Below, piece after piece: positions 8,607-51,096 of a stretch of DNA of 64,000 nt. Position numbers and translations under genes: made by a program. Position 1 is the stretch's first letter. Each line of letters opens with the position of its first letter. The stretch is from positions 512,001 to 576,000 of the forward strand of contig CBDDTI010000747.1 of the NCBI GenBank assembly GCA_965233585.1, read 5' to 3'. Source of the stretch: a bacterium (GTDB lineage Bacteria > SAR324 > NAC60-12). The notes beneath the pieces are model-generated. The model saw only the letters and a program-made list of their open reading frames with translations, made no database searches and was not told where the DNA came from.

Positions 8607-8978
8607 GTGAAGTTGCCAAAGGAGATGTTCTCCGTCATCAAAGTCTTGAATGCGTTTTATTGTGGATTTGCTGGAATTGTCTTTGCCTTCAAAAATGAAC
8701 GAGCCTTCTGTCAAGAAGTGCTTTCGTTCATTCCTCTGTCAATCTGGGCAATCTTCCTTGCAAACTCTCTACTAGATTACCTCTTGTTAGTTGTGCCTTT
8801 CTTTGTAATTCTTGCATTAGAGCTAGTCAACACAGCAATAGAGCAATTAGCTGACTTAATTTCTCAAGAAAAATGTCCTGAAATTAAAATCGTCAAAGAT
8901 TGTGCTGCAGGGGCGGTGTTGTTGATGGTCTTTGTGGCTGCTGTCATTTGGTTCGTGAAGTTCTCAAGTTTTTTGTAA
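8607..8978 (+). CDS. dgkA: Diacylglycerol kinase
   Basis: AFKNERAF, ELVNTAIEQLAD, KDCAAGAVL motifs. Confidence 0.9.
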   Translation: MKLPKEMFSVIKVLNAFYCGFAGIVFAFKNERAFCQEVLSFIPLSIWAIFLANSLLDYLLLVVPFFVILALELVNTAIEQLADLISQEKCPEIKIVKDCAAGAVLLMVFVAAVIWFVKFSSFL

Positions 8979-9020
8979 AACAGACGATACTTAAAGAGAA
9001 ACGGCTAACCTAACCTTATC

Positions 9021-17099: not shown

Positions 17100-17228
17100 A
17101 CCCCAAAAAATGTGATTTTTTAAACCTAGCATGTTGCTATAAACTCTTTTTTGGAATAGAATTTGTCCCTTGTGTTTTCATTCTTTTTTAATTAATTTTT
17201 CATTCACTTTTTGGCAAAGGAGAATCCC

Positions 17229-26015: not shown

Positions 26016-27218
26016 TTGAAAGCCCTTAAAAATGATATGGACTCTACTCATAAGCTACACTACAAGGCATCTATTCTTCACTCATTCATTCGTTTTTTCA
26101 ATAGTTTTTATAGCATTGTTGGAATTGTTTTTATTTTACACATTGCAGTCTTACTTTTCTTTCTCCTTAATCACCCCCCGACAAAGCCCACTATTTCAAC
26201 GCCCCAACGCATACAAGTTGCTGTCATTCTTGCGACTCCGAAACAGTCTAGTCAACCAAAATCTACTGTCAAGCCAAAAAAAGCTAAAAAACCCAAAAAA
26301 CCCAAAAAAGTTGAAAAACCAAAAAAAGTTGAAATCAAGAACAAGCCCCAAAACATCGTCAAGCCCCCACCTGTTCCACCAAAAGCCAAGCCCCTCGTGC
26401 CACGTCCTCCCAAAAACTTGAGTTTTGCCAAACCCACCCTAAACCCCAAGCCTCAAGTGCCTCTTGGAACGGTGTCAAAACTGACTAGTCAACCGTTGAA
26501 TCGTGGAAACTTCTCATCATCAAGGAAATTAAAGCCTGATTCTAACGCCACTCGTTTGGTTGAAAAAAAACTACGTAAAACACGCATTGATTCAAATTTT
26601 TCGCAACCGACCACCAAAACCAAAACAACACCCAGCCTTGCTAAGAGTCTCAATAGTCTCAATCCACAAGCTCCTGAGACACTCCCGCAAATTCAAACAC
26701 AAGAATCCACCAAAACAAACATTGTTCCTTTGGAAAAAACATTGACTCCAGTAGAAAAAGCATCGCTTTCCATTCCATCAGCTTCACAAACGGTTGCTTC
26801 TCACACAGATTTTAAAATTGAATTTCCCAAAATCCAGACGTCTCCAACACTTCCACAAGTTCCGATTGAAACTGAAGACACGCAAACAGAAGAAGTCCAA
26901 ACGTCGCCACAGTCCAATGCAGGGCAACCAAACACTGAGCAGTTGAGTACAGAAAAGTTGGCATACAATCAAGCCATTGCCAATCAAATCCGTTTAGTTG
27001 CCCCACAAACTTTTGAGTCTGATTTGGTGATGCGTGTCAAATTGGTCATAGGTTTGCAAGGAGAGTTGCAGGAGTTGGAAGAACTTCGTTCTAGCGGGAA
27101 TGCCAGCTTTGACCTTGTGGCACGCAATGCACTGAAAAAAGCAACATTTCCTCCTTTGAGCGAAGCCCTTGCACAGAATCCACCTTACATTGTCATTGTT
27201 AACATTTCTCCCAAATAA
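26016..27218 (+). CDS. TolA/TonB-like energy transducer
   Basis: N-terminal TM anchor, K/P-rich linker, C-terminal RSSGNASFDLVARNAL; directly upstream of tolB. Confidence 0.75.
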   Translation: MKALKNDMDSTHKLHYKASILHSFIRFFNSFYSIVGIVFILHIAVLLFFLLNHPPTKPTISTPQRIQVAVILATPKQSSQPKSTVKPKKAKKPKKPKKVEKPKKVEIKNKPQNIVKPPPVPPKAKPLVPRPPKNLSFAKPTLNPKPQVPLGTVSKLTSQPLNRGNFSSSRKLKPDSNATRLVEKKLRKTRIDSNFSQPTTKTKTTPSLAKSLNSLNPQAPETLPQIQTQESTKTNIVPLEKTLTPVEKASLSIPSASQTVASHTDFKIEFPKIQTSPTLPQVPIETEDTQTEEVQTSPQSNAGQPNTEQLSTEKLAYNQAIANQIRLVAPQTFESDLVMRVKLVIGLQGELQELEELRSSGNASFDLVARNALKKATFPPLSEALAQNPPYIVIVNISPK

Positions 27219-27219
27219 A

Positions 27220-28458
27220 ATGCTTATGAAACTTATTTTGCCACTGCTTTTGTCGTTCATCGTTTCGGTTCATTTTGTTCATGCACAAACTTATTCTGAT
27301 GATGAAATCACAATAAGGGACATGAACTTTGCCAGATTTAGCATTGCGTTGGAAGAGTCTGAATCTATCAAGCAGAATTTACAAGGATACCGCTACATTG
27401 CCATTTTGAAAAAAAATCTATGTTGGAGTGGCGTCTTTGTGGTGTATTCCCAACAAAGAGGAACTTATTGTTCCTCAAAAAAATCCCCAGACTTCACTTT
27501 GCAAGTTGGAATTGATGAGGAAGCTAAGTTGGTGATTGAGCTTAAAAATGCCCTGACGCCTTTTCAAAGGAGGCTTGTCATCAATGAACAAGAAATTATG
27601 AATGCCATCAATCAATTAGTGGAGTCTGTCACAGGCACATCAGGGGTTTTAGGTTCTACTCTGGCTTTCACTTTTAAACAACCTAAACGTAAAAAGATTA
27701 TTGCCAGAATCAACACGCATGGCAGAGGATTGGCTCGCATTTCTAAAAACCAAGCGATTAACATTGCTCCGAGATGGTCTCCTCAGGGAGATGCCATTGT
27801 TTATACTGCCTTGGGTCAAAGAAAAAATACGTTGGTTTATAACAGTTTAGAAACGCCAGAGACGACTTTGGGAGAATATCGCGGAATCAATAGCGGTGGG
27901 ACGTGGTCTCCAGACCAGAGTCATTTGATTTTGAATTTGAGCAAAGATGGGAATCCAGAACTTTATCAATTCAACATCTCCCAAAAATCGCTGCTGCGTT
28001 TGACGTTTCATTCTTCTATTGAAGCCTCGCCTGCACTTTCGCCTGATGGGAAATATTTGTTATTTGTCTCAGACAGAGGCGGGAGTGAACAGATTTATTT
28101 GATGTATCTACAAACAAGGGAGACTTTCCGCATCACCTTCACAGGTCAACGCAATGCTGACCCTAAATGGCATCCAAACGGCAGGCTTTTAGCTCTCACT
28201 AAAACAGTGATGGGATACGATCAAATTTATGTGATGGACATTTTTGGTGAAATGTCTCGGCAGATTACGAAAGGGAGGTCTCATTCTGAACAACCTGCAT
28301 GGTCTCCTGATGGCAGAATGCTGGCATTCTCCTCCAACAAATCAGGAACATACAAACTCTACATCACACCACTTGATGGCAAAGACAGGAGGCGCATCAC
28401 GGACACCCCTAGATTTTTTGAAGAAAAGTCTCCTTCTTGGACTCAAAGACAATTTTAA
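27220..28458 (+). CDS. tolB: Tol-Pal beta-propeller protein TolB
   Basis: Signal peptide, PD40 repeats (PRWSPQG, WSPD, FVSDRGG, PAWSPDG). Confidence 0.85.
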   Translation: MLMKLILPLLLSFIVSVHFVHAQTYSDDEITIRDMNFARFSIALEESESIKQNLQGYRYIAILKKNLCWSGVFVVYSQQRGTYCSSKKSPDFTLQVGIDEEAKLVIELKNALTPFQRRLVINEQEIMNAINQLVESVTGTSGVLGSTLAFTFKQPKRKKIIARINTHGRGLARISKNQAINIAPRWSPQGDAIVYTALGQRKNTLVYNSLETPETTLGEYRGINSGGTWSPDQSHLILNLSKDGNPELYQFNISQKSLLRLTFHSSIEASPALSPDGKYLLFVSDRGGSEQIYLMYLQTRETFRITFTGQRNADPKWHPNGRLLALTKTVMGYDQIYVMDIFGEMSRQITKGRSHSEQPAWSPDGRMLAFSSNKSGTYKLYITPLDGKDRRRITDTPRFFEEKSPSWTQRQF

Positions 28459-29430: not shown

Positions 29431-30210
29431 TTATGACTCTTTCTGTGATTGCGATTGTTTGTAAACAATCCGTTCTAGGATTTCTTTGCAAAGTGCTTCA
29501 TACATGAACGCCCCTTTGGTTTTGCCCCCTTTGTAGTCAAAAATACTTTGATGAAACGCAGGGGCTTCTTGAATAGAAACAGAGTCTTCAATCATACTTT
29601 GAAACAGGAGATGAGACCACCGATTTTGAAGTTCTTGAAGCACCGTTTTGGCAATGTTGGTACGATGATTGATTCTGGTAATGGCAATGCCTAAAATCTC
29701 TGCATGGCATGCACCGCATGAGTCTTGTTTTAACCCTTCAATGTATGCCATCGCTTGGTCGCAACCGCTGTATCCAAGATAGTCTGTGACAATGGGAATG
29801 ATGACATAATCTACATACATGAGGATATTTTCATTGATTTCATTCCAGCTGGGTGCGCAGTCAAAAATGACAAAATTCTGTGAAAGGTTTTGGCAAAGTT
29901 TTTTCAAGATTGTTTCACGGAATCTGGAGGCGCTGATGTAACGTGAGGCTTCTGGTAACAACTTTCCCCCTGATGGCAAAAAGTCAAAATTTTGAGAAAG
30001 TTGAACAAATTCAAATTCTTCCACATGCCCTAAAATTAAGTTGGCAAGATTAGAGACGTGGTCTCTTTGAAACACTGTGGTAATGTTTGCTTGCACGTCA
30101 GAGTCAATGAGTAAGACGCTTCTACCTGCTTTGGCAATTCGGTCAGCAAGGCTGATGGCAAGAGCTGTTTTGCCTTGACCTCCTTTCATAGTCATAATTG
30201 CGATTTTCAT
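29431..30210 (-). CDS. ParA/Soj family ATPase
   Basis: KGGQGKT deviant Walker A, IDSDVQAN, FDCAPS. Confidence 0.9.
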   Translation of the reverse strand: MKIAIMTMKGGQGKTALAISLADRIAKAGRSVLLIDSDVQANITTVFQRDHVSNLANLILGHVEEFEFVQLSQNFDFLPSGGKLLPEASRYISASRFRETILKKLCQNLSQNFVIFDCAPSWNEINENILMYVDYVIIPIVTDYLGYSGCDQAMAYIEGLKQDSCGACHAEILGIAITRINHRTNIAKTVLQELQNRWSHLLFQSMIEDSVSIQEAPAFHQSIFDYKGGKTKGAFMYEALCKEILERIVYKQSQSQKES

Positions 30211-30231
30211 ATCGTTCTTTTGGGAATCACT

Positions 30232-31158
30232 TTATTTTTGAGCTGTTTTTTTCAATTTTTGAGACATGTTTTGACCTCTTGGGTGTTTGTCGTGAAAGAC
30301 GGTGTCATAGTGAGGTCTGTTAATGTGAGCATACTGCATGGTTGCATCAAGGCTGACGTATCCGAACAGGGTACGAATGGTTGTCAAGTCCATACCTTGT
30401 TCAATGAGATGAGAGGCAAACGAATGTCTTAAAATACGTGGGTTAATCCGCTTTGTAATTCCTGCAGTTTGGGCGTGCCGCTTCACAATATTCCAAAAGC
30501 TCACACGGTGCAGTCTTTTACTCTGTTGAGAGACAAACAAACACTTGGAAGCAGAGCCTTTTAAATAATACTGCCTTGACCCTTCATTCAAATAGACTTC
30601 CAGACATTCTTTGGCTTTTTTACTGATGGGAACAAGACGCATTCGCTTTCCTTTAATTTTGGCAACTCCTTCTTCCAACAGGAGGTCATCTACATCAAGG
30701 TTGATGATTTCTTCTATTTTTGCACCAGTGGAATATGCAAACTCAAGCATGGCACGGTCTCGGATTCCCAAAAAATGATACTTGGGAGGTGCTTCTAGCA
30801 AGGCGATGACTTCCTTGGCAGACAGCACTTCAGGCAGTTCATATTCAATTTCAGGAAATTTGATGTTCCTCATCGGGTTGTATTGAACTGCTTGGATTTG
30901 CACTAGGAAGTGGAAGAAAAGTTTAAGTGATGAAAGGTGTCTTGCGACTGTTCTTGGCTTGCAGCGACTTTCTAAATCGTTCATGTATTTTTGAAGCATA
31001 GGCAGTGCAACATTGGCAACATCTGTTTTTGAGACGACTTGCCCTTCTCCTAGCCATTGTTCAAAATGAAAGAGGTCTAATTGATGACTTTCAATACTAT
31101 GATTTGAGTATTTTTTGATTTTCAAATATTGTATGAAGTCTGCAATCAGTTGTTTCAT
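30232..31158 (-). CDS. XerD-like tyrosine recombinase with atypical catalytic residues
   Basis: SAM-like N-domain (TVARHLSSLKLFF), LPEVLS...RDRAMLE, LRHSFASHL. Confidence 0.85.
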   Translation of the reverse strand: MKQLIADFIQYLKIKKYSNHSIESHQLDLFHFEQWLGEGQVVSKTDVANVALPMLQKYMNDLESRCKPRTVARHLSSLKLFFHFLVQIQAVQYNPMRNIKFPEIEYELPEVLSAKEVIALLEAPPKYHFLGIRDRAMLEFAYSTGAKIEEIINLDVDDLLLEEGVAKIKGKRMRLVPISKKAKECLEVYLNEGSRQYYLKGSASKCLFVSQQSKRLHRVSFWNIVKRHAQTAGITKRINPRILRHSFASHLIEQGMDLTTIRTLFGYVSLDATMQYAHINRPHYDTVFHDKHPRGQNMSQKLKKTAQK

Positions 31159-35501: not shown

Positions 35502-37682
35502 ATGCCACAGACTGTTCTGGTTCTTGAAGAAAGCCAAATTGTTCAAAATCTCATTGCACAAACGTTGAAACGTCATGATTTGGAGACTCATCAAGAACTT
35601 AATCCCCAAAAATTCTCTGATGCTCTTGCAGTTGGAGACCAAGTCCTTGTTCTCATAGACCTCAAACATTATTCTAAAATACAAACGTTATTAAGCTCAA
35701 GTATGCCTGCTGTGGCATTGCTAGATGCCAAGTCTCAAGTGGACAAACAAACGCTTCTTGACATGGGTTTTAAAGGGTGGCTTCGCCGTCCATTTGAGGC
35801 AAAAGACTTGATGAGCCAGATTCGTCTTGCATTGCCCGACCTCCATGCTCATTCGTCTGAAACTCTTTATGAAGAAGCATGCGAAACGCAAGATGTTGCA
35901 GGCGATGAGAAAAGCCTCATTCACAACCTCTTCTATGACCATTCGGAGACATCGCAGAAAGAGTTTGAAACCTTGAATCTTGAAGAAGTGCCAGATTTTG
36001 AAGATGACACGCTTTGTTTGGATAGCGAAGCATTAGAAGATGAACCTCAACTGGATTTTAGGGTGCCAGAATCCAACGAAGTATCGGAAGGTTTAGAGTT
36101 AGATGAGACATTCTCTGACAATTTTGGGACAGATGAAGGTCAAGATATTTTCAATGAAGAGGAGGAAGGTTTGGAGTTAGATGAGACATTCTCTGACAAT
36201 TTTGGAACAGATGAAAGTCAAGATGCTTTCAGTGAAAAAGAAGAAGGTTTGGAGTTAGATGAGACATTCTCTGACAATTTTGGAACAGATGAAAGTCAAG
36301 ATGCTTTCAGTGAAAAAGAAGAAGGTTTGGAATTGGACGAGATGCTTTCTGGCAATTTTGGGGCTGGGGACGAAGAAGACTTACCACAGTTTGATGCCTC
36401 CTCAAGTGAGACGTCACAATTTGAAAATGACATTCAGAGTTCAGTCATTGACGACTCAAATTCTGATTTAAATACCGATACCGATACAGAAGGTGACTTG
36501 TCAGATTTATTTGCAGAGAAAGAACACGGAATGCCTGATGCGATTCGCAAACACAGAGAAATGTCATTTGCTGGTAGCTCTTTGTTTCAAGCACATATTC
36601 CAGAAAAACAAAAGTTAAATCACGGTCTCACAGACATTAAATTGGGGCTGAATGACTTTGAATCAGAAATCAGCATTGATGATTACGACCCAGAACAAGT
36701 GCAATATCTCCGTAGAAGTGTCATGGATATTGTCCTCAATGCCAATGATTTTGACCCAGAAGTCCCTGATATTCCAGAAGAACAAAGTGAGTCTAGCATA
36801 CTAGAAATGGACTCTATGCTTTTGGAACTTGATGAAGATGAAAAATATGCAAACAGGGAATCCCAAAAAGAATCTTTGGAACAGCAAGTCGCAGATTTTG
36901 ATGATTTTGCAAGCCCCCCTGAACCAATGGAAGTTGGAGTTTTTGCCGAAGCAGAACCTTTTGGGTCTTTGAGCGATGAAGTGGAAATCAATATGCAACC
37001 TCAGGCGATGGCAAATTTTTCTCAAGAAGATGACATCAAACATTTGGAAAAGCAGATGCTAGACATGGAGCAAGGTAGCGACGTCCCAACCATAGACTTT
37101 GAAGAAGATGAAGAGTTTGACTTTGGAACAAGCCAACTAGATATTTCAGTGTCTGAAGAAAAGTCTGATGAAGAAGTCAATTTTGATGGCATCAATCCAG
37201 CTGAAACAGAGTCTTTGTCAATGTCTGCTGATGAATTGACTGATGACTTTTTTGAAGGTTCACAACAACTTGAACCTGAAAGTGAAGACGTAACAGACCC
37301 CAGTTTTGGGGTAGATTTTGAAATGCCGAGCAGTTTTGATGAGCAACCAGAGGATTCTGATGAAGTCAGTGGCACTGATGTCAATTTTGGTCAAGGTAGT
37401 GATGCCTTTGCCACAATGAACAGTTTTGATGAACAACCAGAGGCTGATGATGATGAGCTGTCTGTTGGTCTCCATCAAGAAGAAAGTCCCAGATTAGAGC
37501 TTGAGTCCCAAGATTTTCAAAATCCAGAAGCCAATCAATTCATTTTCCAGCCCAATACAAAAGGTTCGTTGGAAACAGCCTTGCAAAGTATGATCTCAAA
37601 CTCTGTGCAACAAGCCTTAAAAGATATGACTCCGCAACTTGTTGAACAAATTGCCAATCAGCTTAACTCACAAAAGGATTAG
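35502..37682 (+). CDS. Receiver domain plus long acidic linker plus C-terminal helix (RomR-like)
   Basis: N-terminal atypical REC domain; about 550 aa D/E-rich disordered region; C-terminal ALKDMTPQLVEQIANQL. Confidence 0.6.
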   Translation: MPQTVLVLEESQIVQNLIAQTLKRHDLETHQELNPQKFSDALAVGDQVLVLIDLKHYSKIQTLLSSSMPAVALLDAKSQVDKQTLLDMGFKGWLRRPFEAKDLMSQIRLALPDLHAHSSETLYEEACETQDVAGDEKSLIHNLFYDHSETSQKEFETLNLEEVPDFEDDTLCLDSEALEDEPQLDFRVPESNEVSEGLELDETFSDNFGTDEGQDIFNEEEEGLELDETFSDNFGTDESQDAFSEKEEGLELDETFSDNFGTDESQDAFSEKEEGLELDEMLSGNFGAGDEEDLPQFDASSSETSQFENDIQSSVIDDSNSDLNTDTDTEGDLSDLFAEKEHGMPDAIRKHREMSFAGSSLFQAHIPEKQKLNHGLTDIKLGLNDFESEISIDDYDPEQVQYLRRSVMDIVLNANDFDPEVPDIPEEQSESSILEMDSMLLELDEDEKYANRESQKESLEQQVADFDDFASPPEPMEVGVFAEAEPFGSLSDEVEINMQPQAMANFSQEDDIKHLEKQMLDMEQGSDVPTIDFEEDEEFDFGTSQLDISVSEEKSDEEVNFDGINPAETESLSMSADELTDDFFEGSQQLEPESEDVTDPSFGVDFEMPSSFDEQPEDSDEVSGTDVNFGQGSDAFATMNSFDEQPEADDDELSVGLHQEESPRLELESQDFQNPEANQFIFQPNTKGSLETALQSMISNSVQQALKDMTPQLVEQIANQLNSQKD
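36087..36362 (+). repeat. 78-bp (26 aa) intragenic tandem repeat, about 3.5 copies
   Basis: EGLELDETFSDNFGTDE(G/S)QD.. units starting at 36087, 36165, 36243, 36321. Confidence 0.9.
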
Positions 37683-39856: not shown

Positions 39857-39912
39857 CTCTCGCTTGTCTTTTGAGTTCTTTTATTCTACACTAACAGGTT
39901 CGTTTCTTCATT

Positions 39913-39986
39913 GGCGATGTGGCCGAGCGGTTAGGCAGAGGTCTGCAAAACCTTCTACACCGGTTCAAATCCGGTCGTCGCCTCCA
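39913..39986 (+). tRNA. tRNA-Cys (GCA)
   Basis: GGCGATG...CGTCGCC acceptor stem, anticodon loop CTGCAAA, GGTTCAAATCC T-arm, encoded CCA. Confidence 0.95.
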
Positions 39987-40001
39987 CACTTCAACTTTTC
40001 T

Positions 40002-40085
40002 GCCCGGGTGGCGAAATTGGTAGACGCACAGGACTTAAAATCCTGTGTCCGCAAGGGCGTGCCGGTTCGATTCCGGCCCCGGGTA
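40002..40085 (+). tRNA. tRNA-Leu (TAA)
   Basis: GCCCGGG...CCCGGGT acceptor stem, CAGGA-CTTAAAA-TCCTG anticodon arm, long variable arm, GGTTCGATTCC; no encoded CCA. Confidence 0.95.
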
Positions 40086-40176
40086 GTTTCAGCCAAGATT
40101 CCCCAACAAAAAATAGTGGACACAGGCAGGATTGAGCAGAATCATAGTTGAAGTAGCACAGCATAAGTGCATCAGG

Positions 40177-41820
40177 TTATTCATCACCAATGATGGAAGC
40201 CTCAGGCTCTAATTGCTCAATTTCCTCCTTTAGCTTATCGGCTTGGGCTTGTAGCTCGGCAATTTGTTGCTCTAGGGCTTGTTGTTGCTCTGCAGCAATT
40301 TGTTGCAGTATGTCGGGGTCTTTCTCATACAGTTTCAATAGCTCATAGTCGCTGCTTTCATGCAGAGTTTGCAAGGCTTCAATCAGCTCCAGCAGGCGTA
40401 TTTGCAAGCTCTGATACATCTGCTCTAGGGCATGCAGGTTGGATTCCTCGCCAAGCTCTATGGTTTGCCAGCCCTGCTGTTGAATAAACTGTTCGGGGTT
40501 GGCGGCTATCTCCTCTAACAGGGCCAAGTCGCCTTCATCTCTGGCATGGTTAATCACCGCCATGAGCTTTTGGTAGGTCTCCATTTTTTCGGGGTCATTG
40601 TGGTGGCGGTCGGGGTGAAACAGGCGGATGAGCTTGTTCCACAAGGGTTTGATAGCTTTTTTTTGTTCATCAGTTAAGTTCTTTTTGCCACTGGCAGCTT
40701 GCTCGGCTTGCTCTTGCTCTTGTTCGGCTTGCTCTTGCTCTTGTTGAAATGGCTCGTTGAGAGACTCTGCCTCCTCCATACCCTGCTGCATTAAAACATC
40801 TAGGTATTGACTGCGGTAATAAACTATCTGCTGGAGCTTGTTGCGTTTGTGGTGGTAGTGGCTGACCTGTAAAAACAGCTTGGCTTTGAGGGCATCTACG
40901 GCGTTTTTGTCGGTAGTGTATTGTGCCTCTAGCTCAGCTAAACGGTTGCGCAGATTGTTGATAAGGGCTTCTAGCTCTTGTTTTCGTTGCGTGCCATACA
41001 CGGTTAAACTGGTGACATTGCTTGGGCTGGATGTGGGGGTAGATGAGGGATCAAGGGCAATGAATTCTGCCAGTGCCTCCAGTTGTGTCAAATACCATTT
41101 GCCCATCGCTTGGCTACGTTCGTTGTTTGATGAGGCTAACCACTCCAGCCAATCTTTTAGTGCTTGATGACTGCGTGCCTCGCGAAAATCACAGCCCTTA
41201 TATTTTCCAAACGCCAAACGACTGGGATACCAAGGTTGCTGGCAAAAATCCACCACCGCCTGCCAAGTGTTTAGCTCTCGTTGGTCGGCTAGGGGTTGCA
41301 ACACTTGCTGCAGCAGGTCAATCACCGTTTGCACATCGTCTAAGGCAGTGTTTGTACCTCGCTCAGATAGGCGGTAAAACTGCCTTAAAGTTTGTAATTT
41401 GCAGTTGCCTGCGGCGACTGGGTCTAACAAACGTCTAGTGAGTTCCAAGGCACAAAAGCCGCGTCTGCCAATGGGTGCAATACCTAACCGTTGCCATTCG
41501 GGGGTGAGTACTTGGTTTAGGTCGTAGTTTAGGTTGTAGGTTACCAGCGGTGCATCAGCTACATACTGCCTCAATGCCTCGTGTACTTCGCTGGGTGGGT
41601 TGCCATCTCGTTCTAAAATCTCCCTTGTGTAACCGTTTGTGCGAGAGGCTTCGGGCGGTATAGCGGCATCGTGGTTTAATAATTGCCTAAACGGTTCTCC
41701 CACTGCTTGCCAGCCACACATAGTTTGGGCAGCGATCTCTAGGGCAAAAACGGGTCGCTTAAAGCCGGTGGTTTCGGTATCTAATAAGACCCATTTGGTG
41801 TTGTTTATCGGGGGAGTCAT
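40177..41820 (-). CDS. DEDD (DnaQ-like) 3'-5' exonuclease fused to a coiled coil and a DnaJ J-domain
   Basis: LDTETTG (Exo I), YNLNYD (Exo II), TNTALDD (Exo III), AFGKYKG motif, long coiled coil, KLIRLFHPDR J-domain. Confidence 0.88.
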   Translation of the reverse strand: MTPPINNTKWVLLDTETTGFKRPVFALEIAAQTMCGWQAVGEPFRQLLNHDAAIPPEASRTNGYTREILERDGNPPSEVHEALRQYVADAPLVTYNLNYDLNQVLTPEWQRLGIAPIGRRGFCALELTRRLLDPVAAGNCKLQTLRQFYRLSERGTNTALDDVQTVIDLLQQVLQPLADQRELNTWQAVVDFCQQPWYPSRLAFGKYKGCDFREARSHQALKDWLEWLASSNNERSQAMGKWYLTQLEALAEFIALDPSSTPTSSPSNVTSLTVYGTQRKQELEALINNLRNRLAELEAQYTTDKNAVDALKAKLFLQVSHYHHKRNKLQQIVYYRSQYLDVLMQQGMEEAESLNEPFQQEQEQAEQEQEQAEQAASGKKNLTDEQKKAIKPLWNKLIRLFHPDRHHNDPEKMETYQKLMAVINHARDEGDLALLEEIAANPEQFIQQQGWQTIELGEESNLHALEQMYQSLQIRLLELIEALQTLHESSDYELLKLYEKDPDILQQIAAEQQQALEQQIAELQAQADKLKEEIEQLEPEASIIGDE

Positions 41821-43145
41821 CGGATCACCTCTACCTCATCATCGCAACCCAGCCATTTTAAGTTAGGGTTTTGGGAGACATCTAGTGCCGTGAGTTGGTT
41901 GTACTCGCACCACAGCCGTTCTAAGTTAGGGTTTTGGGAGACATCTAGTGCCGTGAGTTGGTTGTCCTCGCACCACAGCTCTTGTAAGTTAGGGTTTTGG
42001 GAGACATCTAGTGCCGTGAGTTGGTTCCTTCTGCAATCCAGCCGTTCTAAGTTAGGGTTTTGGGAGACATCTAGTGCCGTGAGTTGGTTCCTTCTGCAAT
42101 CCAGCCGTTCTAAGTTAGGGTTTTGGGAGACATCTAGTGCCGTGAGTTGGTTGCTTATGCAATCCAGCCGTTCTAAGTTAGGGTTTTGGGAGACATCTAG
42201 TGCCGTGAGTTGGTTGCTTCTGCACCGCAGACATTCTAAGTTAGGGTTTTGGGAGACATCTAGTGCCGTGAGTTGGTTGTACTCGCACCACAGCCGTTCT
42301 AAGTTAGGGTTTTGGGAGACATCTAGTGCCGTGAGTTGGTTGTCCTCGCACCACAGCCGTTCTAAGTTAGGGTTTTGGGAGACATCTAGTGCCGTGAGTT
42401 GGTTCCTTCTGCACCACAGCTCTTGTAAGTTAGGGTTTTGGGAGACATCTAGTGCCGTGAGTTGGTTGTCCTCGCACCACAGCCGTTCTAAGTTAGGGTT
42501 TTGGGAGACATCTAGTGCCGTGAGTTGGTTCCTTCTGCAATCCAGCCGTTCTAAGTTAGGGTTTTGGGAGACATCTAGTGCCGTGAGTTGGTTGCTTCTG
42601 CAATCCAGCCGTTCTAAGTTAGGGTTTTGGGAGACATCTAGTGCCGTGAGTTGGTTGTCCTCGCACCACAGCCGTTCTAAGTTAGGGTTTTGGGAGACAT
42701 CTAGTGCCGTGAGTTGGTTGTCCTCGCAATCCAGCCGTTCTAAGTTAGGGTTTTGGGAGACATCTAGTGCCGTGAGTTGGTTGCTTCTGCAATCCAGCCG
42801 TTCTAAGTTAGGGTTTTGGGAGACATCTAGTGCCGTGAGTTGGTTGGGGGTTTTGGAACCCGCTTCATTGCCACATTTGAGAATTTGCAGATTGGGATAG
42901 CGGCTCACATCCAGTTCGGTCAGCCCTTGGTCGCTGACATCCAGCTCCGTCACGCTGTAGTCCAAATGCTCGGCGACTTGGCTACTTTTTTGAACTAAGG
43001 CACGGGCGCGTGCTAGGGCATCGTTGGCGACCTCGTCTATATGCCGTTGAGCTGCCGGGCTGAGGCTTGGTTGGCTGCTTTGGCGAACAACAGGCAGTTG
43101 TTGGTCTGCTTTGTGGGTATGATCGCTGTTTTCATCACTGTTCAT
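41817..43145 (-). CDS. Cytoplasmic leucine-rich-repeat protein with 16 near-identical 21-aa repeats
   Basis: 16 x NQLTALDVSQNPNLxxLxCxx; RBS AGGAG upstream; stop overlaps the next ATG (ATGA). Confidence 0.93.
   Translation of the reverse strand: MNSDENSDHTHKADQQLPVVRQSSQPSLSPAAQRHIDEVANDALARARALVQKSSQVAEHLDYSVTELDVSDQGLTELDVSRYPNLQILKCGNEAGSKTPNQLTALDVSQNPNLERLDCRSNQLTALDVSQNPNLERLDCEDNQLTALDVSQNPNLERLWCEDNQLTALDVSQNPNLERLDCRSNQLTALDVSQNPNLERLDCRRNQLTALDVSQNPNLERLWCEDNQLTALDVSQNPNLQELWCRRNQLTALDVSQNPNLERLWCEDNQLTALDVSQNPNLERLWCEYNQLTALDVSQNPNLECLRCRSNQLTALDVSQNPNLERLDCISNQLTALDVSQNPNLERLDCRRNQLTALDVSQNPNLERLDCRRNQLTALDVSQNPNLQELWCEDNQLTALDVSQNPNLERLWCEYNQLTALDVSQNPNLKWLGCDDEVEVIR
41838..42845 (-). 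repeat. 16 x 63-bp coding tandem array (42 bp invariant plus 21 bp variable)
   Basis: Invariant + strand block TAAGTTAGGGTTTTGGGAGACATCTAGTGCCGTGAGTTGGTT with exact 63-bp period. Confidence 0.97.
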
Positions 43146-43223
43146 AGTTTAGCTCCTGTTAGGTTGATGTGAGTCGGTCTGTTGGTGATAGAGTCAATTC
43201 AGAAAGGTTTTGTTAGGGAATAC

Positions 43224-44630
43224 CTAATCTTCCATGAACACCGAATGAATCACTTGAAGTGCATGCAAGACAGACTTTTGCTCAATCACGCAGGAGATGT
43301 TAATTTCTGATGCACCTTGTGTGATCATCTCAATATTGATGCCTTCATTGGCTAATGCAGAAAACATTTCTCCTGCTGTGCCAATGGAATGTTTCATGTG
43401 CCTACCAACGAGACTGACGATGGCACGTTCATGCGAAACGTAGGGTTTTCCTAGAGCTTTCAGTCTTGGCACTAAAAGTGGCAGTTTTGAATACTCTGCA
43501 GTAGCACAGGAGATGACAGACTCAGACATAGAAATGAGATCAATGATGATAGATTCTTGGTAAAAGGCATCAAGCACGTATGCCAAAAATCTTGCGGGGT
43601 GGAGTCTTCTGTTTGAGACAAGCTGCACAACTGAAACAGGGTCTTTGGCTGTAACAGCAGTGGCAACAGGTTGTTTACTGGGTTGAATCTGTGAAGGGAA
43701 GTATTTTTTAATTTGGTCTTCAACCACGATGACGGTGCCTTTTTTTTCAGGGTAGAACGTGTTTTTAATGCGTACGGGGACGTCAACAGAAAGTGCTTGT
43801 TCCATTGTCATGGGGTGCAACACTTCTGAACCGAAGTATGTCAACTCTGAAGCCTCTTGTGGTGAGATATAGTCTAACACTCTTGCAGATTCTACTTTGC
43901 GAGGGTCTGCAGTGAAGATGCCGTCAACTTCTTTCCAAATTTGTAACTCATCAGCAATCTTTGCAGCCGCAATCAACGAGGCAGTAAAGTCTGTGTAGCC
44001 ACGTCCGATGGTATCAACAATGCCTCCTTTGACAAATCCCAAAAAACCTGTCACAACGGGAATCACATGAGGGCTGCTAGGTAATTTTTCAAGCACTTTC
44101 CTGCGAAGAGTTGGAATAAATTCAGAATCGGTAGTGTCTAACTTCCCCGGTATGATTTCAGACAAATTGACATACATGCTATGTTGACCCTGATCCTTCA
44201 AAATGCTTGCAAGAGCCATAGCAGACAGTCGCTCACCTGCACCAATGATGAGGTCTTTGGAACGGGGTGAAACCTCTTGAATAACGCCAATAGCTTGTAA
44301 AAATTGCCTCAGCGATTCTAACTCTTGCTTGATGAGTAGCTGGACTTCCCAAAAAATCTCTTGCGAATCAATCGCACCCTGAATGGCATTTAAATAAGTT
44401 TGTTCAATTTGTTCAAGGGGTTTGAAGTAATCCTTGCCTATGAGGGCTAAGCCACTGGCTTGTATGAGTCTGCTGGTTGTGCCTTCTTCTTTGATGTAAG
44501 AACTCATTGCAGAGACAACAGCAATGACAGAAGATTCTTTGGTAGTCTGGCAAATGATTTGAGCAACAGATTTGAGACGTTTGGCGTTCCCAAGACTTGT
44601 GCCTCCAAACTTTTGGACGATTAAAGACAT
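43224..44630 (-). CDS. lysC: Aspartate kinase with ACT domains
   Basis: VQKFGGTS, GRGYTD, WKEVDGIFTADPR, QGASEINISCVI. Confidence 0.93.
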   Translation of the reverse strand: MSLIVQKFGGTSLGNAKRLKSVAQIICQTTKESSVIAVVSAMSSYIKEEGTTSRLIQASGLALIGKDYFKPLEQIEQTYLNAIQGAIDSQEIFWEVQLLIKQELESLRQFLQAIGVIQEVSPRSKDLIIGAGERLSAMALASILKDQGQHSMYVNLSEIIPGKLDTTDSEFIPTLRRKVLEKLPSSPHVIPVVTGFLGFVKGGIVDTIGRGYTDFTASLIAAAKIADELQIWKEVDGIFTADPRKVESARVLDYISPQEASELTYFGSEVLHPMTMEQALSVDVPVRIKNTFYPEKKGTVIVVEDQIKKYFPSQIQPSKQPVATAVTAKDPVSVVQLVSNRRLHPARFLAYVLDAFYQESIIIDLISMSESVISCATAEYSKLPLLVPRLKALGKPYVSHERAIVSLVGRHMKHSIGTAGEMFSALANEGINIEMITQGASEINISCVIEQKSVLHALQVIHSVFMED

Positions 44631-44726
44631 GCGGTGAGAAGGTCAGCAGAAGGTGTTGTCATTTTCAATTTCAATTCTTTTGAGAGTGTTCAAAACAGAG
44701 GTGATGAAAACAGATGGAAGTAGTTG

Positions 44727-45983
44727 CTAAGATTTTTTTGCTGGAGAAGTTGATTTTTTTTCTTCTGCCAGTTCTTTCATTTTTGCTTCTTTTTCCTTCT
44801 TTTTTTGGTGCAGCTTGATAGATTCCTCTCTTGCTCCTTTCAAGGCTAATTTATATTTTTCTGCTTGTGCAGAAGTTCCTGCCACCTTATGCAATTCAAT
44901 GGCAAGCTCCATGAGCTGAACTTTACCTGATGCCGCATCAATTTTTTGGATATTTCCCCGACCCAATGCTTTGATTCCATCTTCAACATACTTCAAGGCT
45001 TGTTTGTGTTGGTCAAGAGACATGCTGTTTTGAGCCATAGAATAATAGGCTTTGTAGGCTTTGGAAAATCGCTTGTTATTTGCTGCTTCTTGGTAATAGT
45101 GATTACTGATTTGAATCATACTTGATAACATTTTGTTGATAGAAATGGGATTTTTACCAGATGGCAGGACAATTTTACTTTTGGGAAAATCTTGGTTGAA
45201 ACGAGTGATGAATGATCGGAGCTTACCCATGTCTTTCACTTGCTGTTTTTGGGATTTTCCACTGACCACTGCCAGATAAAAATCAATGATGTCTTGAAAC
45301 ACCTTGGCTTTATAAATCTGGATTTCTCCACTCTTGAGTAAAAACATGGCACGGCTTTGCACTAGCATGATTTGTTCATACTCGTTCAAATGATAAAAGG
45401 CTTCATAGTGACGTCTGCCCTGCATGTAAAATTTGATGATTCTCTCACGTGATTCTAAGGCAACAAGGTCTTTGTTAACCAGCATCTCAGACATGAGAGA
45501 ATGCACTTTTTTTTCAACATGATACGGAGTGTTGTTAATCGGTGTTAGAACCTTGAAGGTGCTAACCATCAAAGAACATCCTGGTGGATAGACTTTGCGT
45601 GTTGCAGTTTGAACACTGGTTGAGGCAACATCAATGGCAGTGTAAAGCAAAAAAAGTTGCCTTGATACATTGGAGACCTCTTTTGAAGCGGCATCAATGA
45701 TCCATCTTGCAAGAACTTCTATGAATTTTTCACCATCTTTTTGCTGACGGTAAAAAGAGGCACAAATCTGAATGCCTTGTGCCAACAAATTCATATCTGT
45801 TGTGCTGTCAGCAAGCATCTGGGTCACTTGAGAGATGGGAACTTTGACTTTAGAGCTAAAAAGACGGTGCTGTCTTTTTTCCTCTGCTTCCATGATAGAG
45901 CTGGTTAATTTTTTGGTAGAAGCATCAAAATTAAACTCAAAGCATTGAAGTTCTTGATTTTGCGAGGAAGAATCTGCCGACAT
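44727..45983 (-). CDS. Hypothetical helical (TPR-like) protein
   Basis: 418-aa ORF; no recognised motif. Confidence 0.6.
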   Translation of the reverse strand: MSADSSSQNQELQCFEFNFDASTKKLTSSIMEAEEKRQHRLFSSKVKVPISQVTQMLADSTTDMNLLAQGIQICASFYRQQKDGEKFIEVLARWIIDAASKEVSNVSRQLFLLYTAIDVASTSVQTATRKVYPPGCSLMVSTFKVLTPINNTPYHVEKKVHSLMSEMLVNKDLVALESRERIIKFYMQGRRHYEAFYHLNEYEQIMLVQSRAMFLLKSGEIQIYKAKVFQDIIDFYLAVVSGKSQKQQVKDMGKLRSFITRFNQDFPKSKIVLPSGKNPISINKMLSSMIQISNHYYQEAANNKRFSKAYKAYYSMAQNSMSLDQHKQALKYVEDGIKALGRGNIQKIDAASGKVQLMELAIELHKVAGTSAQAEKYKLALKGAREESIKLHQKKKEKEAKMKELAEEKKSTSPAKKS

Positions 45984-46090: not shown

Positions 46091-47353
46091 ATGGCTCATC
46101 TTGACCGTTTTTATTATCTTTTGTCCATCTTTTTTCAGCTAGGGTTTTTGGTCTTAACTTCTGAAGCCTATGCTCAATCTTCAGTAGAATCGGTAGAAAT
46201 TGAATCTATCATCATCTCAAAAAATTGCTCACAAGTCCGTTTTCCAGAATTGCACGACCAAGCACAGCAAAATCCTGATTGTCCGAAATATGGAGACATT
46301 CAGCTCATTCAAATTACCCTTCAAAACAATCTCTCCAAGGTCGTTCCCGCAGTTGTTCAAGTCATGGTTCATAGAGAAGGAGACTTATTGACAACTCTCA
46401 AAAAAGAACAACAGCTTTTGCCACGCTCCCAAGTGCGTTCACTGTTTCAGTACCAAATCCCTCAAGAAGGAGGGGAGTATCAAATTTCGGCAAAACTCTT
46501 AGACCTTGAAACCCCAGAGAACGTCATTGCTTTGTCAAAATTTGCGACCAATCAACGTTTTTATCTGCTGAAGCAGTCAGAACTTGACCGCGTGAAAGCG
46601 ACAGAGGAGCTGAGAATTGCAGAGGGTCAAAGGATTCCCCAGCAACTTAAATTTGACCCGCCAGACCTTAAATGGGAGCAAATCCATGTGTTCCCCAAAC
46701 ATGTTCTGCGTGGTGAAAAACTGCGTTTGCGGGTAGATTTGACCAACGTCGGTGGAGACCTTGCCCGAAATGTCAAATCTCGTGTGAGTTTCTATAATGT
46801 TCGTTTGCCAAGACGAAAAACGATTATTGCAGAGCCTGCTGTTGACCTTCTTGCACCCGGTGAGACAGCAACATTTGAGTTAGAATATACCTTCCCCGGG
46901 GACCAGATTTTAGGAGAGTACAAAATTGAAGCGGTTTCAGATGTTAGAAATCTGATTCCAGAGATTGATGAGGAAAACAATGCACTATCATCTGAACTGA
47001 TGCAGCTCAGCGACATTAAACTTCTGCTTCCACCTGATAAATTTTCATTTGAAGAAGAGGGGTTGTTTTTGTTTCAATGGGACAGCATCACCTTCCGAGA
47101 GTTTAAACTGCAGATTGGCATTAACAAAAAATTTGATGACCCTAACAACTACTTTGAGTTACCTCAAGGAGGACGTTGGGTCTCTGACAAGGAGCTTTCA
47201 CCTCTCAAAGGAGAACTTCCAGAGATGGGAATTGGTCTAACCAAAAGATTCCGAACCAGAACACTTTACTGGAGAATTGTTGGCAGACAATCCAGCGGGC
47301 AACAAACGCACTCTACTCCCCGAGAGTTTACCATCGGTCAGCAAGAAGACTAA
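46091..47353 (+). CDS. Secreted protein with a CARDB/Ig-like domain
   Basis: Signal peptide (AYA), PDL...LTNVG...LAPGE...IPEIDEENN CARDB signature. Confidence 0.75.
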   Translation: MAHLDRFYYLLSIFFQLGFLVLTSEAYAQSSVESVEIESIIISKNCSQVRFPELHDQAQQNPDCPKYGDIQLIQITLQNNLSKVVPAVVQVMVHREGDLLTTLKKEQQLLPRSQVRSLFQYQIPQEGGEYQISAKLLDLETPENVIALSKFATNQRFYLLKQSELDRVKATEELRIAEGQRIPQQLKFDPPDLKWEQIHVFPKHVLRGEKLRLRVDLTNVGGDLARNVKSRVSFYNVRLPRRKTIIAEPAVDLLAPGETATFELEYTFPGDQILGEYKIEAVSDVRNLIPEIDEENNALSSELMQLSDIKLLLPPDKFSFEEEGLFLFQWDSITFREFKLQIGINKKFDDPNNYFELPQGGRWVSDKELSPLKGELPEMGIGLTKRFRTRTLYWRIVGRQSSGQQTHSTPREFTIGQQED

Positions 47354-49612: not shown

Positions 49613-50179
49613 TTACAAAACCCCTAAAATCAAAACTGGAATATCAATGTCTGAAACACCTCTTTTTTCTAAATCCCAGACAAATTGTTCAAAATAAGAA
49701 ACTCCTGATGACATTTCATCGGCTAGTTCTTTAATCGGAACAATTTCTATGCCTGCATCAATAATGTTCAGCTTCTTAAAGATAGTCATCTTTGCACAGA
49801 CGTTATAAACCATAAACGCATACTTTCCAAATTGCACTTCAACTCCTAGTCTTTCTTTCACAAAATCCATATCTCTAAATGCACCTTGTTTTAAAGGTTT
49901 AGGTTGATAATTTTTTGTGTAATATTGTGTTGGGTAGTTACATTTTTCTTTATGATTGTGCCAATTTCTAGCTGAAAAATATTTTTTAAATTCTTGATTT
50001 AACATAGCAGGACTGTACAGTAGTTTGCCCTGCATTGTTTTCTCTTGACTTATTTTATCTTTGCACTTCTCAGAATCTACACATTGAACGACTTCATAAG
50101 TTTGACTCAACAATTCTGCAAAGTGATTTTGAATAAACTCCTTACCACCATTAAAGCTAAATTCTCCAGCAACAATCAT
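49613..50179 (-). CDS. BglII/BstYI-family type II restriction endonuclease
   Basis: DFVKERLGVEVQFGKYAFMVYN, GIEIVP, SSGVSYFEQ; ATG 50179 overlaps the MTase stop (alternative start 50188). Confidence 0.85.
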   Translation of the reverse strand: MIVAGEFSFNGGKEFIQNHFAELLSQTYEVVQCVDSEKCKDKISQEKTMQGKLLYSPAMLNQEFKKYFSARNWHNHKEKCNYPTQYYTKNYQPKPLKQGAFRDMDFVKERLGVEVQFGKYAFMVYNVCAKMTIFKKLNIIDAGIEIVPIKELADEMSSGVSYFEQFVWDLEKRGVSDIDIPVLILGVL

Positions 50180-51096
50180 AAGCTCCACTGCAATGGAAAT
50201 TGTGCGACTTTTTCGGTACCACTTGGCTGATGGATGGGTTTCCCGATTGGTCTTATTCTCAGGTTTCCCGAAAGAAATTGCTCAACTCTTTGCTTGGCAA
50301 TAGAGCAATACCTCTCTTCTTTTTCAACGCAAACAGGTAACCGATGATGCTTCAAACAAGCAATAGCAGTACTTCCTACCCCACCAAAGGGGTCTAGAAC
50401 CATATCATGTTTGTTGGTAAAAGCTAGGATGCAACGTTCCACTAACTCTATTGGGAATTGACAAGGGTGTTCTGTTTTTTCAGGGTGATTAGACTTGACG
50501 TTGGGAATATCAATCATACCTAAATCAAACTCTGTTTGAAGTAGCTCCCAATAATCTGATGGGTTTTTACCCTTTGGGTTTCCGCTTAATTCTCCTTTTC
50601 TTTTGCCTTTAAAATGTCGTTTCCCGGGATATTTTGAGGGAATACGGACTTCATCTAAATTGAAGATATAATTCTCATTTTTAGAAAACCAAAGCAAAGT
50701 TTCATAGCGTCCAGAAAGTCTTTTTTGTGCATGTAACCCATGGTTAAAGTGCCAAATGATACGGTTTCTTAACTGTAAACCTAGCTTTTTAAAAATGGGG
50801 TAAAAATACATATCCAGAGGAAAGATTTCCCCTTTTTCAACATAATTTCCCACTTGCCAACAAAAACTTCCTGTTGGCTTCAGTTTGGGAACAAGTTGAG
50901 AGATAATTGATTCTTGCCAAGCTAAATAATTTGCTAAAGACGTTTTTTCTTCGTAGTTTTTACCGACATTATAAGGAGGAGAAGTGATAATCAGCTGAAA
51001 TTGACCATCAGCAAAATCTTTGATTTTTTCTTCTATTTCTCCTTGAAAAATAGATTGGCTTTCATCAAAAAAACAACTCTGCATTGTCAAAATCAA
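50176..51096 (-). CDS. N4-cytosine-type DNA methyltransferase (beta class), cognate of the adjacent REase
   Basis: TSPPYN catalytic motif, HPCQFP, LDPFGGVGST SAM motif. Confidence 0.92.
   Translation of the reverse strand: MILTMQSCFFDESQSIFQGEIEEKIKDFADGQFQLIITSPPYNVGKNYEEKTSLANYLAWQESIISQLVPKLKPTGSFCWQVGNYVEKGEIFPLDMYFYPIFKKLGLQLRNRIIWHFNHGLHAQKRLSGRYETLLWFSKNENYIFNLDEVRIPSKYPGKRHFKGKRKGELSGNPKGKNPSDYWELLQTEFDLGMIDIPNVKSNHPEKTEHPCQFPIELVERCILAFTNKHDMVLDPFGGVGSTAIACLKHHRLPVCVEKEERYCSIAKQRVEQFLSGNLRIRPIGKPIHQPSGTEKVAQFPLQWSL

Follow-up and report, generated by a model that had tools for sequence, protein, structure and literature searches.

Introduction

The two-gene locus described here lies on the minus strand at positions 40177-43145 of a 64,000-nucleotide stretch of a genome of the bacterial lineage SAR324 (GenBank assembly GCA_965233585.1, contig CBDDTI010000747.1, positions 512,001 to 576,000; this whole stretch is called the window below), and its parts resemble several described systems. 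Gene 1 encodes a leucine-rich repeat (LRR) protein and gene 2 a fusion of a DEDDh-type exonuclease with a J-domain, the exonuclease-J (exo-J) protein. The N-terminal 185 residues of the latter match RNase_T and DnaQ-type profiles and structures, as in the DnaQ/ExoX-type DEDDh exonucleases, and Cas2-DEDDh (PDB 8fy9) is a precedent for a DEDDh domain fused to an immune protein. However, the matched profiles and chains of DnaQ, ExoX and Cas2-DEDDh lack the 290-residue coiled-coil, J-domain and helical extension of exo-J, which differs from the DnaQ/ExoX enzymes also by a dedicated upstream partner and, in the window copy, by the loss of the catalytic His. With the DnaJ/Hsp40 co-chaperones exo-J shares helix II, the HPD motif and helix III, but in exo-J the J-domain sits within the chain between coiled coils and is joined to a nuclease. 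The PADLOC candidate PDC-S48, which no paper that we found in the open-access literature names, has the exonuclease and the ExoX-like half in common with exo-J (residues 10-248 against model positions 6-236 of 411, E 2.9e-10), whereas the C-terminal halves differ and PDC-S48 is a single-gene candidate.

Precedents also exist for the combination of chaperones and exchangeable binding domains with immunity. Toxin-antitoxin-chaperone (CmdTAC) systems reportedly make the host chaperone network part of the immune trigger; they depend on a SecB-like chaperone gene of their own and on a small antitoxin, whereas a homologue of neither is present here. Phage sensing by bNACHT25 is reported to require DnaJ, so that a host chaperone is part of the immune trigger (PMC12169576). 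DnaJ is a free protein there, whereas here the effector itself contains the co-chaperone domain, and the window pair has no NACHT domain. In Kaur et al. 2020 (PMC7159879), FGS is discussed as a diversifying binder, and LRR, TPR and FGS binders are modular in other conflict systems. STAND/NLR-like systems and the ternary systems of that paper combine a constant core with interchangeable repeat or FGE-sulfatase-type domains, as the present locus does, but their nucleoside triphosphatase (STAND, MoxR, GTPase) is absent here and the sensor is linked through a leader on a separate polypeptide.

The first-pass annotation of the window had read the pair as a sensor-effector conflict module. We judge it about evenly probable that the pair is a horizontally acquired and diverged version of a widespread sensor/nuclease module of two genes, which likely acts against mobile DNA. 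As far as sequence comparison can establish it, the two-gene module is securely real and occurs across many bacterial phyla, where its first gene is exchangeable. No function has been described for the module; it resembles a sensor-plus-effector system and possibly serves in phage defence. In the first-pass proposal the two-gene unit, the variable partner, the repeat-protein partners and a leader common to the family have held up, while the defence context is partial and the predicted complex of the two proteins is weak.

A recurrent gene pair

Gene 1 (41817-43145, minus strand) is an open reading frame (ORF) of 442 aa with an N-terminal leader-like segment followed by an array of 21-residue, Cys-containing LRR units matched by Pfam LRR_4, and an AGGAG ribosome-binding site lies 8 nt 5' of its ATG (43153-43157). 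Gene 2 (40177-41820, minus strand) is an ORF of 547 aa, with relatives of 47-55% identity over the full length. The two genes overlap at 41817-41820, where an ATGA within the sequence ...CGATGACT... contains both the TGA that ends gene 1 and the ATG that begins gene 2.

By sequence, exo-J proteins are a large, strongly conserved and unnamed family. The best 120 homologues have 534-617 aa and cover 92-100% of the query, and the nearest relatives reach 51-55% identity. Their source names are only 'exonuclease domain-containing protein' or 'DNA polymerase III epsilon subunit-like', and a protein atlas labels the clusters only 'hypothetical protein' and 'Exonuclease...'. Neither a fusion of an exonuclease with a J-domain nor the leader was found described in the open-access literature, with subscription journals and preprint supplements outside the search. 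When one genome per species was scanned, 145 exo-J relatives came to light; 80 loci were kept, mostly from Verrucomicrobiota, with others from Alpha-, Beta- and Gammaproteobacteria, Planctomycetota, Acidobacteriota, Nitrospira, Binatia, Chloroflexota and Vulcanimicrobiota. The family has spread horizontally: its distribution is patchy, the phyla are intermixed on the exo-J tree, and the tree departs from the host phyla.

The coupling of the two genes is near-universal in the family. Twelve of the 80 loci had less than 700 bp upstream, which left 68 assessable for a partner, taken to be a same-strand ORF of at least 100 aa that ends at most 160 bp from the exo-J match. Such an adjacent upstream partner is present in 67 of the 68 loci, and thus the pairing is not due to chance; the two-gene unit with its ATGA overlap, which the first-pass annotation had described, is confirmed by this recurrence as well as by the ORFs and the sequence of the window. 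The sole exception (L061) has a leader-bearing LRR gene directly downstream instead (7654-9018), and another locus (L016) carries such a gene directly 3' of exo-J (5631-7205) besides its upstream partner; therefore the gene order is not fixed. At the 67 junctions, 25 pairs overlap, 17 of them by the same -4, and 31 lie 0-20 nt apart, which amounts to 56 of 67 overlapping or within 20 nt, although the distance was taken from the in-frame start nearest the partner stop, a choice that favours short distances.

The first genes are diverse. By Pfam class the 67 partners comprise 35 LRR proteins, 17 Sel1 proteins, one with Sel1 and a receiver domain (REC), six with REC, three FGE-sulfatase proteins, one WG-repeat and one TPR protein, and three without an assigned class, so that the repeat-protein partners whose recurrence would support the first-pass proposal do recur (35 LRR, 18 Sel1, 1 TPR and 1 WG-repeat). 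When the 711 called genes of all loci were clustered, the partners alone recurred in the flanks, the LRR cluster in 34 loci and the Sel1 cluster in 26, and no third conserved gene, SecB-like or other, was found among them. We mapped the partner class on a FastTree phylogeny of 59 exo-J rows, that is the window and the 58 loci with a class label and an ORF of at least 480 aa, six labelled loci with truncated ORFs being left out. The class changes at least 15 times, where the minimum possible is 5 and the mean of shuffled labels 23.6, and none of 200 shuffles was as low; therefore the partners are inherited but often swapped. Recurrence and partner classes together support the view that the two genes form a unit whose first gene is the variable member. 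In one Pseudomonadales partner (L077, 4049-5983) two LRR blocks are present, each after a copy of the module that follows the leader, which is an internal duplication of the sensor.

An arrangement of this kind recalls a selfish addiction module of the toxin-antitoxin type, in which exo-J would be the toxin, the upstream partner would neutralise it through the leader, and Hsp70 would stabilise the neutraliser, in analogy to the toxin-antitoxin-chaperone systems. Two translationally coupled genes with a neutraliser-like gene upstream, a distribution suggestive of horizontal spread and a co-chaperone domain built into the putative toxin are all in keeping with this. We nevertheless hold it to be improbable, as the partners are large (121-665 aa) and consist of binding repeats rather than small DNA-binding antitoxin folds, neither a SecB-like nor any other third gene recurs, and there are no plasmid copies at E<=1e-10.

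A shared leader on the partner proteins

Most partners begin with the same leader of about 40 residues, composed of a hydrophobic-Pro-Arg-Pro motif, some 13 further residues and an Arg-led amphipathic stretch that ends in an invariant Leu. An iterated hidden Markov model (HMM) of the leader matched 61 ORFs among 6782 and was found at E<1e-3 in 48 of the 67 adjacent partners. The 19 partners without it include nine (L010, L019, L027, L031, L041, L043, L051, L056 and L060) that share a variant leader, and this variant is confined to one exo-J clade with 100% support (Akkermansiaceae and Verrucomicrobiaceae), which suggests that leader and effector co-vary. In four more (L014, L075, L046 and L058) the leader is on a separate upstream ORF piece; the partners of L014 (5085-6033) and L075 (4927-5997) are split in two ORFs, possibly by a frameshift, decay or an assembly error. 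Five loci (L004, L006, L016, L052 and L072) have two leader-bearing genes each.

A leader-only profile searched against 1.84 billion representatives found 749 proteins at E<=1e-3, of which 315 reach E<=1e-10, all known from the protein sequence alone, and in nearly all of the best 150 the leader begins at residue 1. A tally per Pfam family, in which one protein may match several, gives Response_reg 45, Sel1 42, LRR_4 10, several TPR families, and FGE-sulfatase and HEAT one each among these 150. P0140 (219 aa) and P0201 (177 aa) have the substrate-binding part of HSP70 (Pfam positions 373/388-517 of 599) after the leader; judged by this match, a chaperone-type peptide-binding domain serves here as the variable module beside a J-domain effector. 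Many leader proteins of 170-220 aa are without a Pfam domain.

The shared leader that would support the first-pass proposal is thus borne out for the family, while for the window itself the evidence is suggestive. The leader-like N-terminus of gene 1 (aa 1-50, 42996-43145, minus strand) is hydrophilic, carries no signal peptide and matches the family leader weakly: in the MAFFT alignment its R, D, L and A fall on conserved leader columns without gaps, and its score of 3.2 bits against the iterated HMM was equalled by 20 of 5000 shuffles.

The partner would likely bind exo-J through the leader, because the coupling is near-universal and the leader type co-varies with the effector clade by clade. 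A structure prediction of the complex, in which the exo-J alignment was set against residues 1-100 of the window partner aligned with 51 family leaders, gave scores of 0.50, 0.63 and 0.36 (median 0.50) with 0.00 for the best of three controls, which is graded as weak support. Of the 157 solved complexes used for calibration 116 reached the mark, as did 2 of the 215 mismatched pairs; at a score of 0.60 or less it was reached by just 18 of these complexes and by both passing mismatches. As our own alignments were used, the calibration holds roughly. The runs agree in at least 59% of contacts, with a predicted local distance difference test (pLDDT) value of at least 42 for the partner. The complex that the first-pass annotation led us to look for therefore scores above every control and stays at the level of weak support.

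The exonuclease-J protein

In gene 2, the DEDD(h)-type 3'-5' exonuclease domain (aa 5-185, 41266-41808; all parts of gene 2 are given on the minus strand) matches RNase_T (PF00929) over residues 11-169 at E 2.6e-10 and 41.5 bits, above the cut-off of 24, and the DEDDh model of PADLOC at 1.4e-17, and the family profile finds DnaQ (8h18, 9.5e-11) and Cas2-DEDDh (8fy9, 1.8e-9) in the PDB. These matches bear out the DnaQ-like nuclease of the first-pass annotation; its set of DEDD residues is kept in four of five places. The acidic residues of Exo I (D14 and E16) and Exo II (D100) are present, but the H-x4-D motif of Exo III is incomplete, as Asn157 (codon AAC, 41350-41352), placed by the family alignment at the position of the catalytic His, the general base, stands with D162. 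The alignment comprises 194 sequences, that is the window protein, 74 locus ORFs of at least 480 aa and 119 database proteins, some of them possibly duplicates. Among these members D14 is retained in 191, E16 in 191, D100 in 194, H157 in 193, D162 in 193 and HPD in 194.

Next comes an ExoX-like C-terminal module (aa 186-254, 41059-41265) with invariant F, G, K, K, G and W columns. The FGKYKG motif reported in the first pass is indeed there (41194-41211) and equals the motif of ExoX-like_C (PF20600), a weak match found in 7 of 20 family members with a best E of 0.0064. NCBIfam exoX (NF005937) aligns to residues 12-235 at 28.4 bits, far under its equivalog cut-off of 202, and the other NCBIfam scores likewise fall far short of theirs. 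A long helical hairpin follows, a predicted coiled coil (aa 274-377, 40690-41001) that AlphaFold2 models as helices 274-346 and 355-377 with pLDDT of about 85-94. With the full-length model, Foldseek returned nothing from the PDB at E<=0.001, just DnaQ-domain chains with probability 0.97 at E 0.2-0.4.

The J-domain-like module (aa 381-448, 40477-40680) is identified by the invariance of HPD and by the family profile, which matches about thirty solved J-domains in the PDB across helix II, HPD and helix III (best E 3.1e-4). The HPD residues H402, P403 and D404 (40609-40617) lie in the model in a loop between helices 384-398 and 410-429, and the region has the expected helices; when the C-terminal model was searched with Foldseek, DnaJ (5nro_B) ranked only 20th at E 6.5. 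Pfam DnaJ is matched in 20 of 20 scanned family members at E<=1, the best at 7.4e-6, and PF00226 appears in the precomputed annotation of 5 of 120 relatives. In the 20 scanned members there was no Pfam match to the Gly/Phe-rich region, the zinc-finger or the C-terminal client-binding domain of DnaJ. The J-domain claimed in the first pass is therefore supported for the family and its HPD, while the score of the window protein itself falls under the Pfam cut-off, as taken up below. The protein ends in a C-terminal helical region (aa 462-537, 40210-40437) modelled with pLDDT of about 85-97 and without a significant Foldseek match.

The LRR array of the window

Gene 1 matches Pfam LRR_4 at E 6.7e-67 in 13 stretches and is built of tandem LxxLxLxxNxL-type units. 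Tandem Repeats Finder reports a period of 63 bp with 15.9 copies and 92% matches at 41844-42846, and the 21-residue repeat occurs in 16 near-identical units (aa 103-438, 41832-42839) preceded by one or two degenerate ones (aa 64-102, 42840-42956), all on the minus strand. The part before the LRRs, about 63-74 aa, is hydrophilic and has no hydrophobic signal-peptide stretch. The description of gene 1 as a leader without a signal peptide plus 16 LRRs was thus right, with one or two degenerate units to be added. A scaffold of 36 nt is present in 16 copies with 0 mismatches, and the units vary only at codons 13, 14, 16, 18 and 19, the x positions of LxxLxCxxN, which would lie on the predicted concave face. 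Among the 120 pairs of units there are 5 synonymous and 372 nonsynonymous codon differences, in line with the 'rapidly diversifying LRR' of the first pass. Two unit types dominate the array and recombinants occur besides.

The simplest reading of this pattern, drawn from the codon counts, would be recent amplification together with selection on the residues of the ligand face, and an assembly artefact may be another source, as the array is known from one sequence. The 21-residue Cys-containing unit is common to the window and to eight LRR partners printed from other loci; in these eight, synonymous and nonsynonymous differences are about equally large, with units 64-83% identical. A diversity-generating retroelement was considered as the source of the variation and rejected, since the Pfam scans, which took in window ORFs of at least 150 aa, contained no reverse transcriptase and the differences are multi-base codon swaps. 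A repetitive ORF of 336 aa runs antisense over the array (41890-42900, plus strand); it appears to be a by-product of the repeats rather than a gene.

In TAL-effector repeat arrays, too, the tandem units are almost identical and vary only in a few codons that set specificity. The window array is like them in its near-identical units with few variable codons, but the TALE repeat is helical, whereas here an LRR unit of 21 residues varies at five positions on the predicted concave face. The likeness concerns the repeat pattern only. With its identical scaffold, the array is a clean natural example of unit-wise hypervariability.

Eukaryote-like proteins with LRR or Sel1 repeats, together with the J-domain nuclease, could also be meant for delivery to a eukaryotic host, in which case the J-domain would hijack the Hsp70 of that host. 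The window does encode other eukaryote-like repeat proteins, a Kelch protein (4579-5841) and an RCC1 protein (17211-18782), and gene 1 partially matches the NCBIfam models of internalin J and SlrP. Their scores, however, are far under the family cut-offs (268 bits against 1700 for internalin J, 118.8 bits against 1113 for SlrP), and so is that against the XopAC model. There is no signal peptide or recognisable secretion signal, the family has free-living hosts such as Allochromatium, Thiocystis, Halomonas, Polaromonas and many Verrucomicrobiota, and receiver-domain partners are cytoplasmic signalling modules, which makes host delivery very improbable.

Proposed mechanism and its relation to defence

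We hypothesize that gene 1 is an adaptor or sensor in which a short conserved leader precedes an interchangeable binding or input domain, LRR in the window and Sel1, TPR, receiver, FGE-sulfatase, WG-repeat or Hsp70 substrate-binding domain elsewhere, and that gene 2 would be the constant effector, an ExoX-like DEDDh 3'-5' exonuclease with a long coiled coil and a J-domain with invariant HPD. The leader would dock the sensor onto the effector, the variable domain would bind a protein or peptide ligand or take a phosphoryl signal, and the J-domain could then engage the DnaK (Hsp70) of the cell. Remodelling of the complex by DnaK would in turn control when the exonuclease attacks DNA with free 3' ends. 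Such a device would most likely serve in conflict with phages or other mobile DNA. A stronger version, which we find quite unlikely, is a new class of Hsp70-gated immune nuclease with leader-tagged sensors, in which DnaK would license the exonuclease once a phage protein is captured and each LRR unit of the window would recognise one element of a linear or repetitive ligand.

The genomic context of the family gives this role moderate support, judged without a matched background rate. In the 33 loci with long flanks, two genes on each side of the pair were scanned (132 proteins), and a specific PADLOC hit at E<=1e-12 was found among the four nearest genes in six of the 33: Cas1f and Cas2-3f in L004, PglZ, BrxL and WYL in L031, PDC-S31 in both L037 and L041, DruE in L044 and PD-T7-5 in L075. 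Generic ABC-ATPase or desulfurase matches in five further loci were not counted. With Pfam toxin-antitoxin, Abi and mobile-element families included, 13 of the 33 loci have such neighbours, the additions being ARPP-1 (L010), PIN (L022), BrnT (L026), a conjugative coupling protein (L030), HNH (L045), DUF3631 (L055) and AbiU2 (L077). The defence-island context looked for after the first pass is therefore found in part of the loci and is lacking in the other 20.

A number of observations weigh against a chaperone-linked sensor and nuclease in defence, or against the window pair as a working example of it. Dependence on DnaK, gating of the nuclease and the defence role of the module are inferred from the anatomy of the proteins, and the predicted complex has the weak grade given above and was computed from our own alignments. 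As regards the leader of the window, 516 of 5000 shuffles score as well against the first, non-iterated HMM, it gave no leader-HMM match at E<=10 among the 6782 ORFs, phmmer found nothing for it below E 0.8, and a homologue search with residues 1-75 was empty at E<=10; a visual likeness to the leader of L030 gave no BLASTP alignment and is not claimed. In the effector, Asn stands at the catalytic His position in the window protein alone, with His in 193 of 194 members, Pfam DnaJ matches residues 385-421 of the window protein at 18.7 bits, below the cut-off of 27.8, and Foldseek with the C-terminal 208-residue model found nothing at E<1 and no significant J-domain match. Fused or longer forms of exo-J (959-2735 aa) were not found at E<=1e-10, which is weak evidence. 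As to context, in 20 of the 33 loci the four nearest genes are all housekeeping or unannotated ones, and PADLOC-DB 2.0 names no system for the pair, in agreement with the first pass; its matches are at the domain level, namely the generic DEDDh model, the partial PDC-S48 match and a trivial 25-residue match to PDC-S70. No exo-J homologue was found by tblastn in plasmid and phage collections at E<=1e-10, and therefore there is no direct sign of mobility. Finally, no class is commoner among the 150 best leader proteins than the receiver domain (45), which fits signalling better than the sensing of non-self.

Receiver-domain partners point to a signalling input as much as to non-self recognition, and they bring in a signal-regulated accessory of DNA processing or repair in place of an immune system. 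Its adaptors would steer or switch the ExoX-like exonuclease according to cellular signals, phosphorylation in the case of receiver domains and protein partners in the case of Sel1, LRR or TPR, and its J-domain would serve only folding or turnover of the complex. Besides the prevalence of receivers, which are also present in 7 of the 67 loci, the likeness of the nuclease half to ExoX and DnaQ-type housekeeping enzymes, the 20 loci amid housekeeping or unannotated genes and the lack of plasmid or phage copies at the threshold given all agree with such a function. We still regard it as unlikely, since the distribution across phyla is patchy and the exo-J tree does not follow the hosts, the partner class was swapped at least 15 times with tandem partner paralogues in some genomes, the window pair has foreign composition and hypervariable LRR codons, and defence genes are adjacent in six of the 33 loci.

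If the proposal of a leader-docked sensor and a chaperone-gated exonuclease were true, exo-J would be the first nuclease effector with a built-in Hsp70 co-chaperone domain that is served by a plug-in sensor family, and it would link the general chaperone machinery directly to nucleic-acid degradation. The swappable input domains on one docking leader could be used in studies of sensor-effector evolution and as parts for engineering. Since the family is large and conserved, a single experiment in a cultured host would annotate more than 100 genomes and several hundred protein clusters.

Acquisition and state of the window copy

The gene pair is compositionally foreign to its surroundings. The GC content is 0.48-0.52 across 40000-43250, against about 0.40-0.45 on either side and 0.418 in the entire window, and the GC content at third codon positions (GC3) is 0.527 and 0.56 in the two genes against 0.33-0.41 in six neighbouring genes. 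This GC3 contrast marks, as far as composition can tell, a recent acquisition, and the first-pass statement that the pair is more GC-rich than its housekeeping surroundings holds for both measures. One edge of the GC-rich stretch is formed by tRNA-Leu(taa) (40001-40086, plus strand), which is convergent with the pair and lies exactly 90 bp from the stop of gene 2, where the first pass had put it at about that distance. An island at the 3' end of a tRNA gene, as had been suggested, would fit the composition and the position, but no integrase gene lies between the tRNA and the aspartate kinase gene beyond gene 1, and no attachment-site-like direct repeats of at least 9 bp flank the GC-rich stretch between the tRNA-Leu side and the far side. 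The island at the tRNA therefore rests on composition and position.

The window copy is atypical within its family. In addition to Asn157, it carries the substitutions P152S, A156T and G161D within the same Exo III motif, and it departs from the family at 19 of 170 highly conserved positions, as many as one other member (L073) and compared with a median of 4. The module that follows the leader in the eight other printed LRR partners is absent from the window partner. Because the catalytic His is replaced by Asn, the window copy may cut poorly or not at all.

The pair could accordingly be a degenerating or re-purposed remnant with a non-working nuclease, an explanation compatible with every other one and, in our estimation, somewhat unlikely, though not to be neglected. 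It would account for the Asn unique among 194 members with the three further substitutions and the 19 deviations, for a barely recognisable leader without its following module, and for the long branch on the exo-J tree and the odd composition. A remnant is less easily reconciled with two intact ORFs of full length that keep the coupling overlap and a good ribosome-binding site, with the retention of HPD, FGKYKG and four of the five DEDD residues, with an LRR array that appears recently expanded and selected, and with L073, which deviates just as much.

Neighbouring genes and other features of the window

Upstream of gene 1, after a gap of 78 bp, lies an aspartate kinase gene (43224-44630, minus strand; AA_kinase and ACT domains), and the far flank of the pair holds an IMP-cyclohydrolase-like gene and a TldD-like gene by Pfam. 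A tRNA search places tRNA-Cys at 39913-39986 (plus strand), and tRNA-Cys and tRNA-Leu are the sole Rfam matches. A promoter and terminator scan of 39900-44800 gave 6 against 4.8±2.5 and 4 against 5.8±2.4, both within shuffle expectation, so no boundaries of a transcription unit can be claimed.

About 6.5 kb away is a type II restriction-modification pair, in which a BglII-like endonuclease (49613-50188, minus strand) overlaps an N4/N6 DNA methylase (50176-51096, minus strand). A methylase-like ORF of 183 aa at 11578-12129 (plus strand) matches just positions 2-133 of 221 of N6_N4_Mtase and may be a truncated gene. A tyrosine recombinase with Phage_integrase and SAM-like domains (29431-31158, minus strand) lies beside a ParA/MinD-like ATPase about 9 kb off, with no obvious link to the pair.

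The ORF next to the aspartate kinase gene (44727-45983, minus strand, 418 aa) is without a Pfam match, as is a very acidic ORF of 726 aa with near-identical internal repeats of about 27 residues (35502-37682, plus strand; none at E<=0.01). Four genes for 'eukaryote-like' repeat or beta-propeller proteins, namely the Kelch (minus strand) and RCC1 (plus strand) proteins mentioned above and the genes at 27169-28458 and 46091-47353 (both plus strand), comprise PD40 and CARDB-domain proteins as well, and the genome seems to be rich in proteins of this kind.

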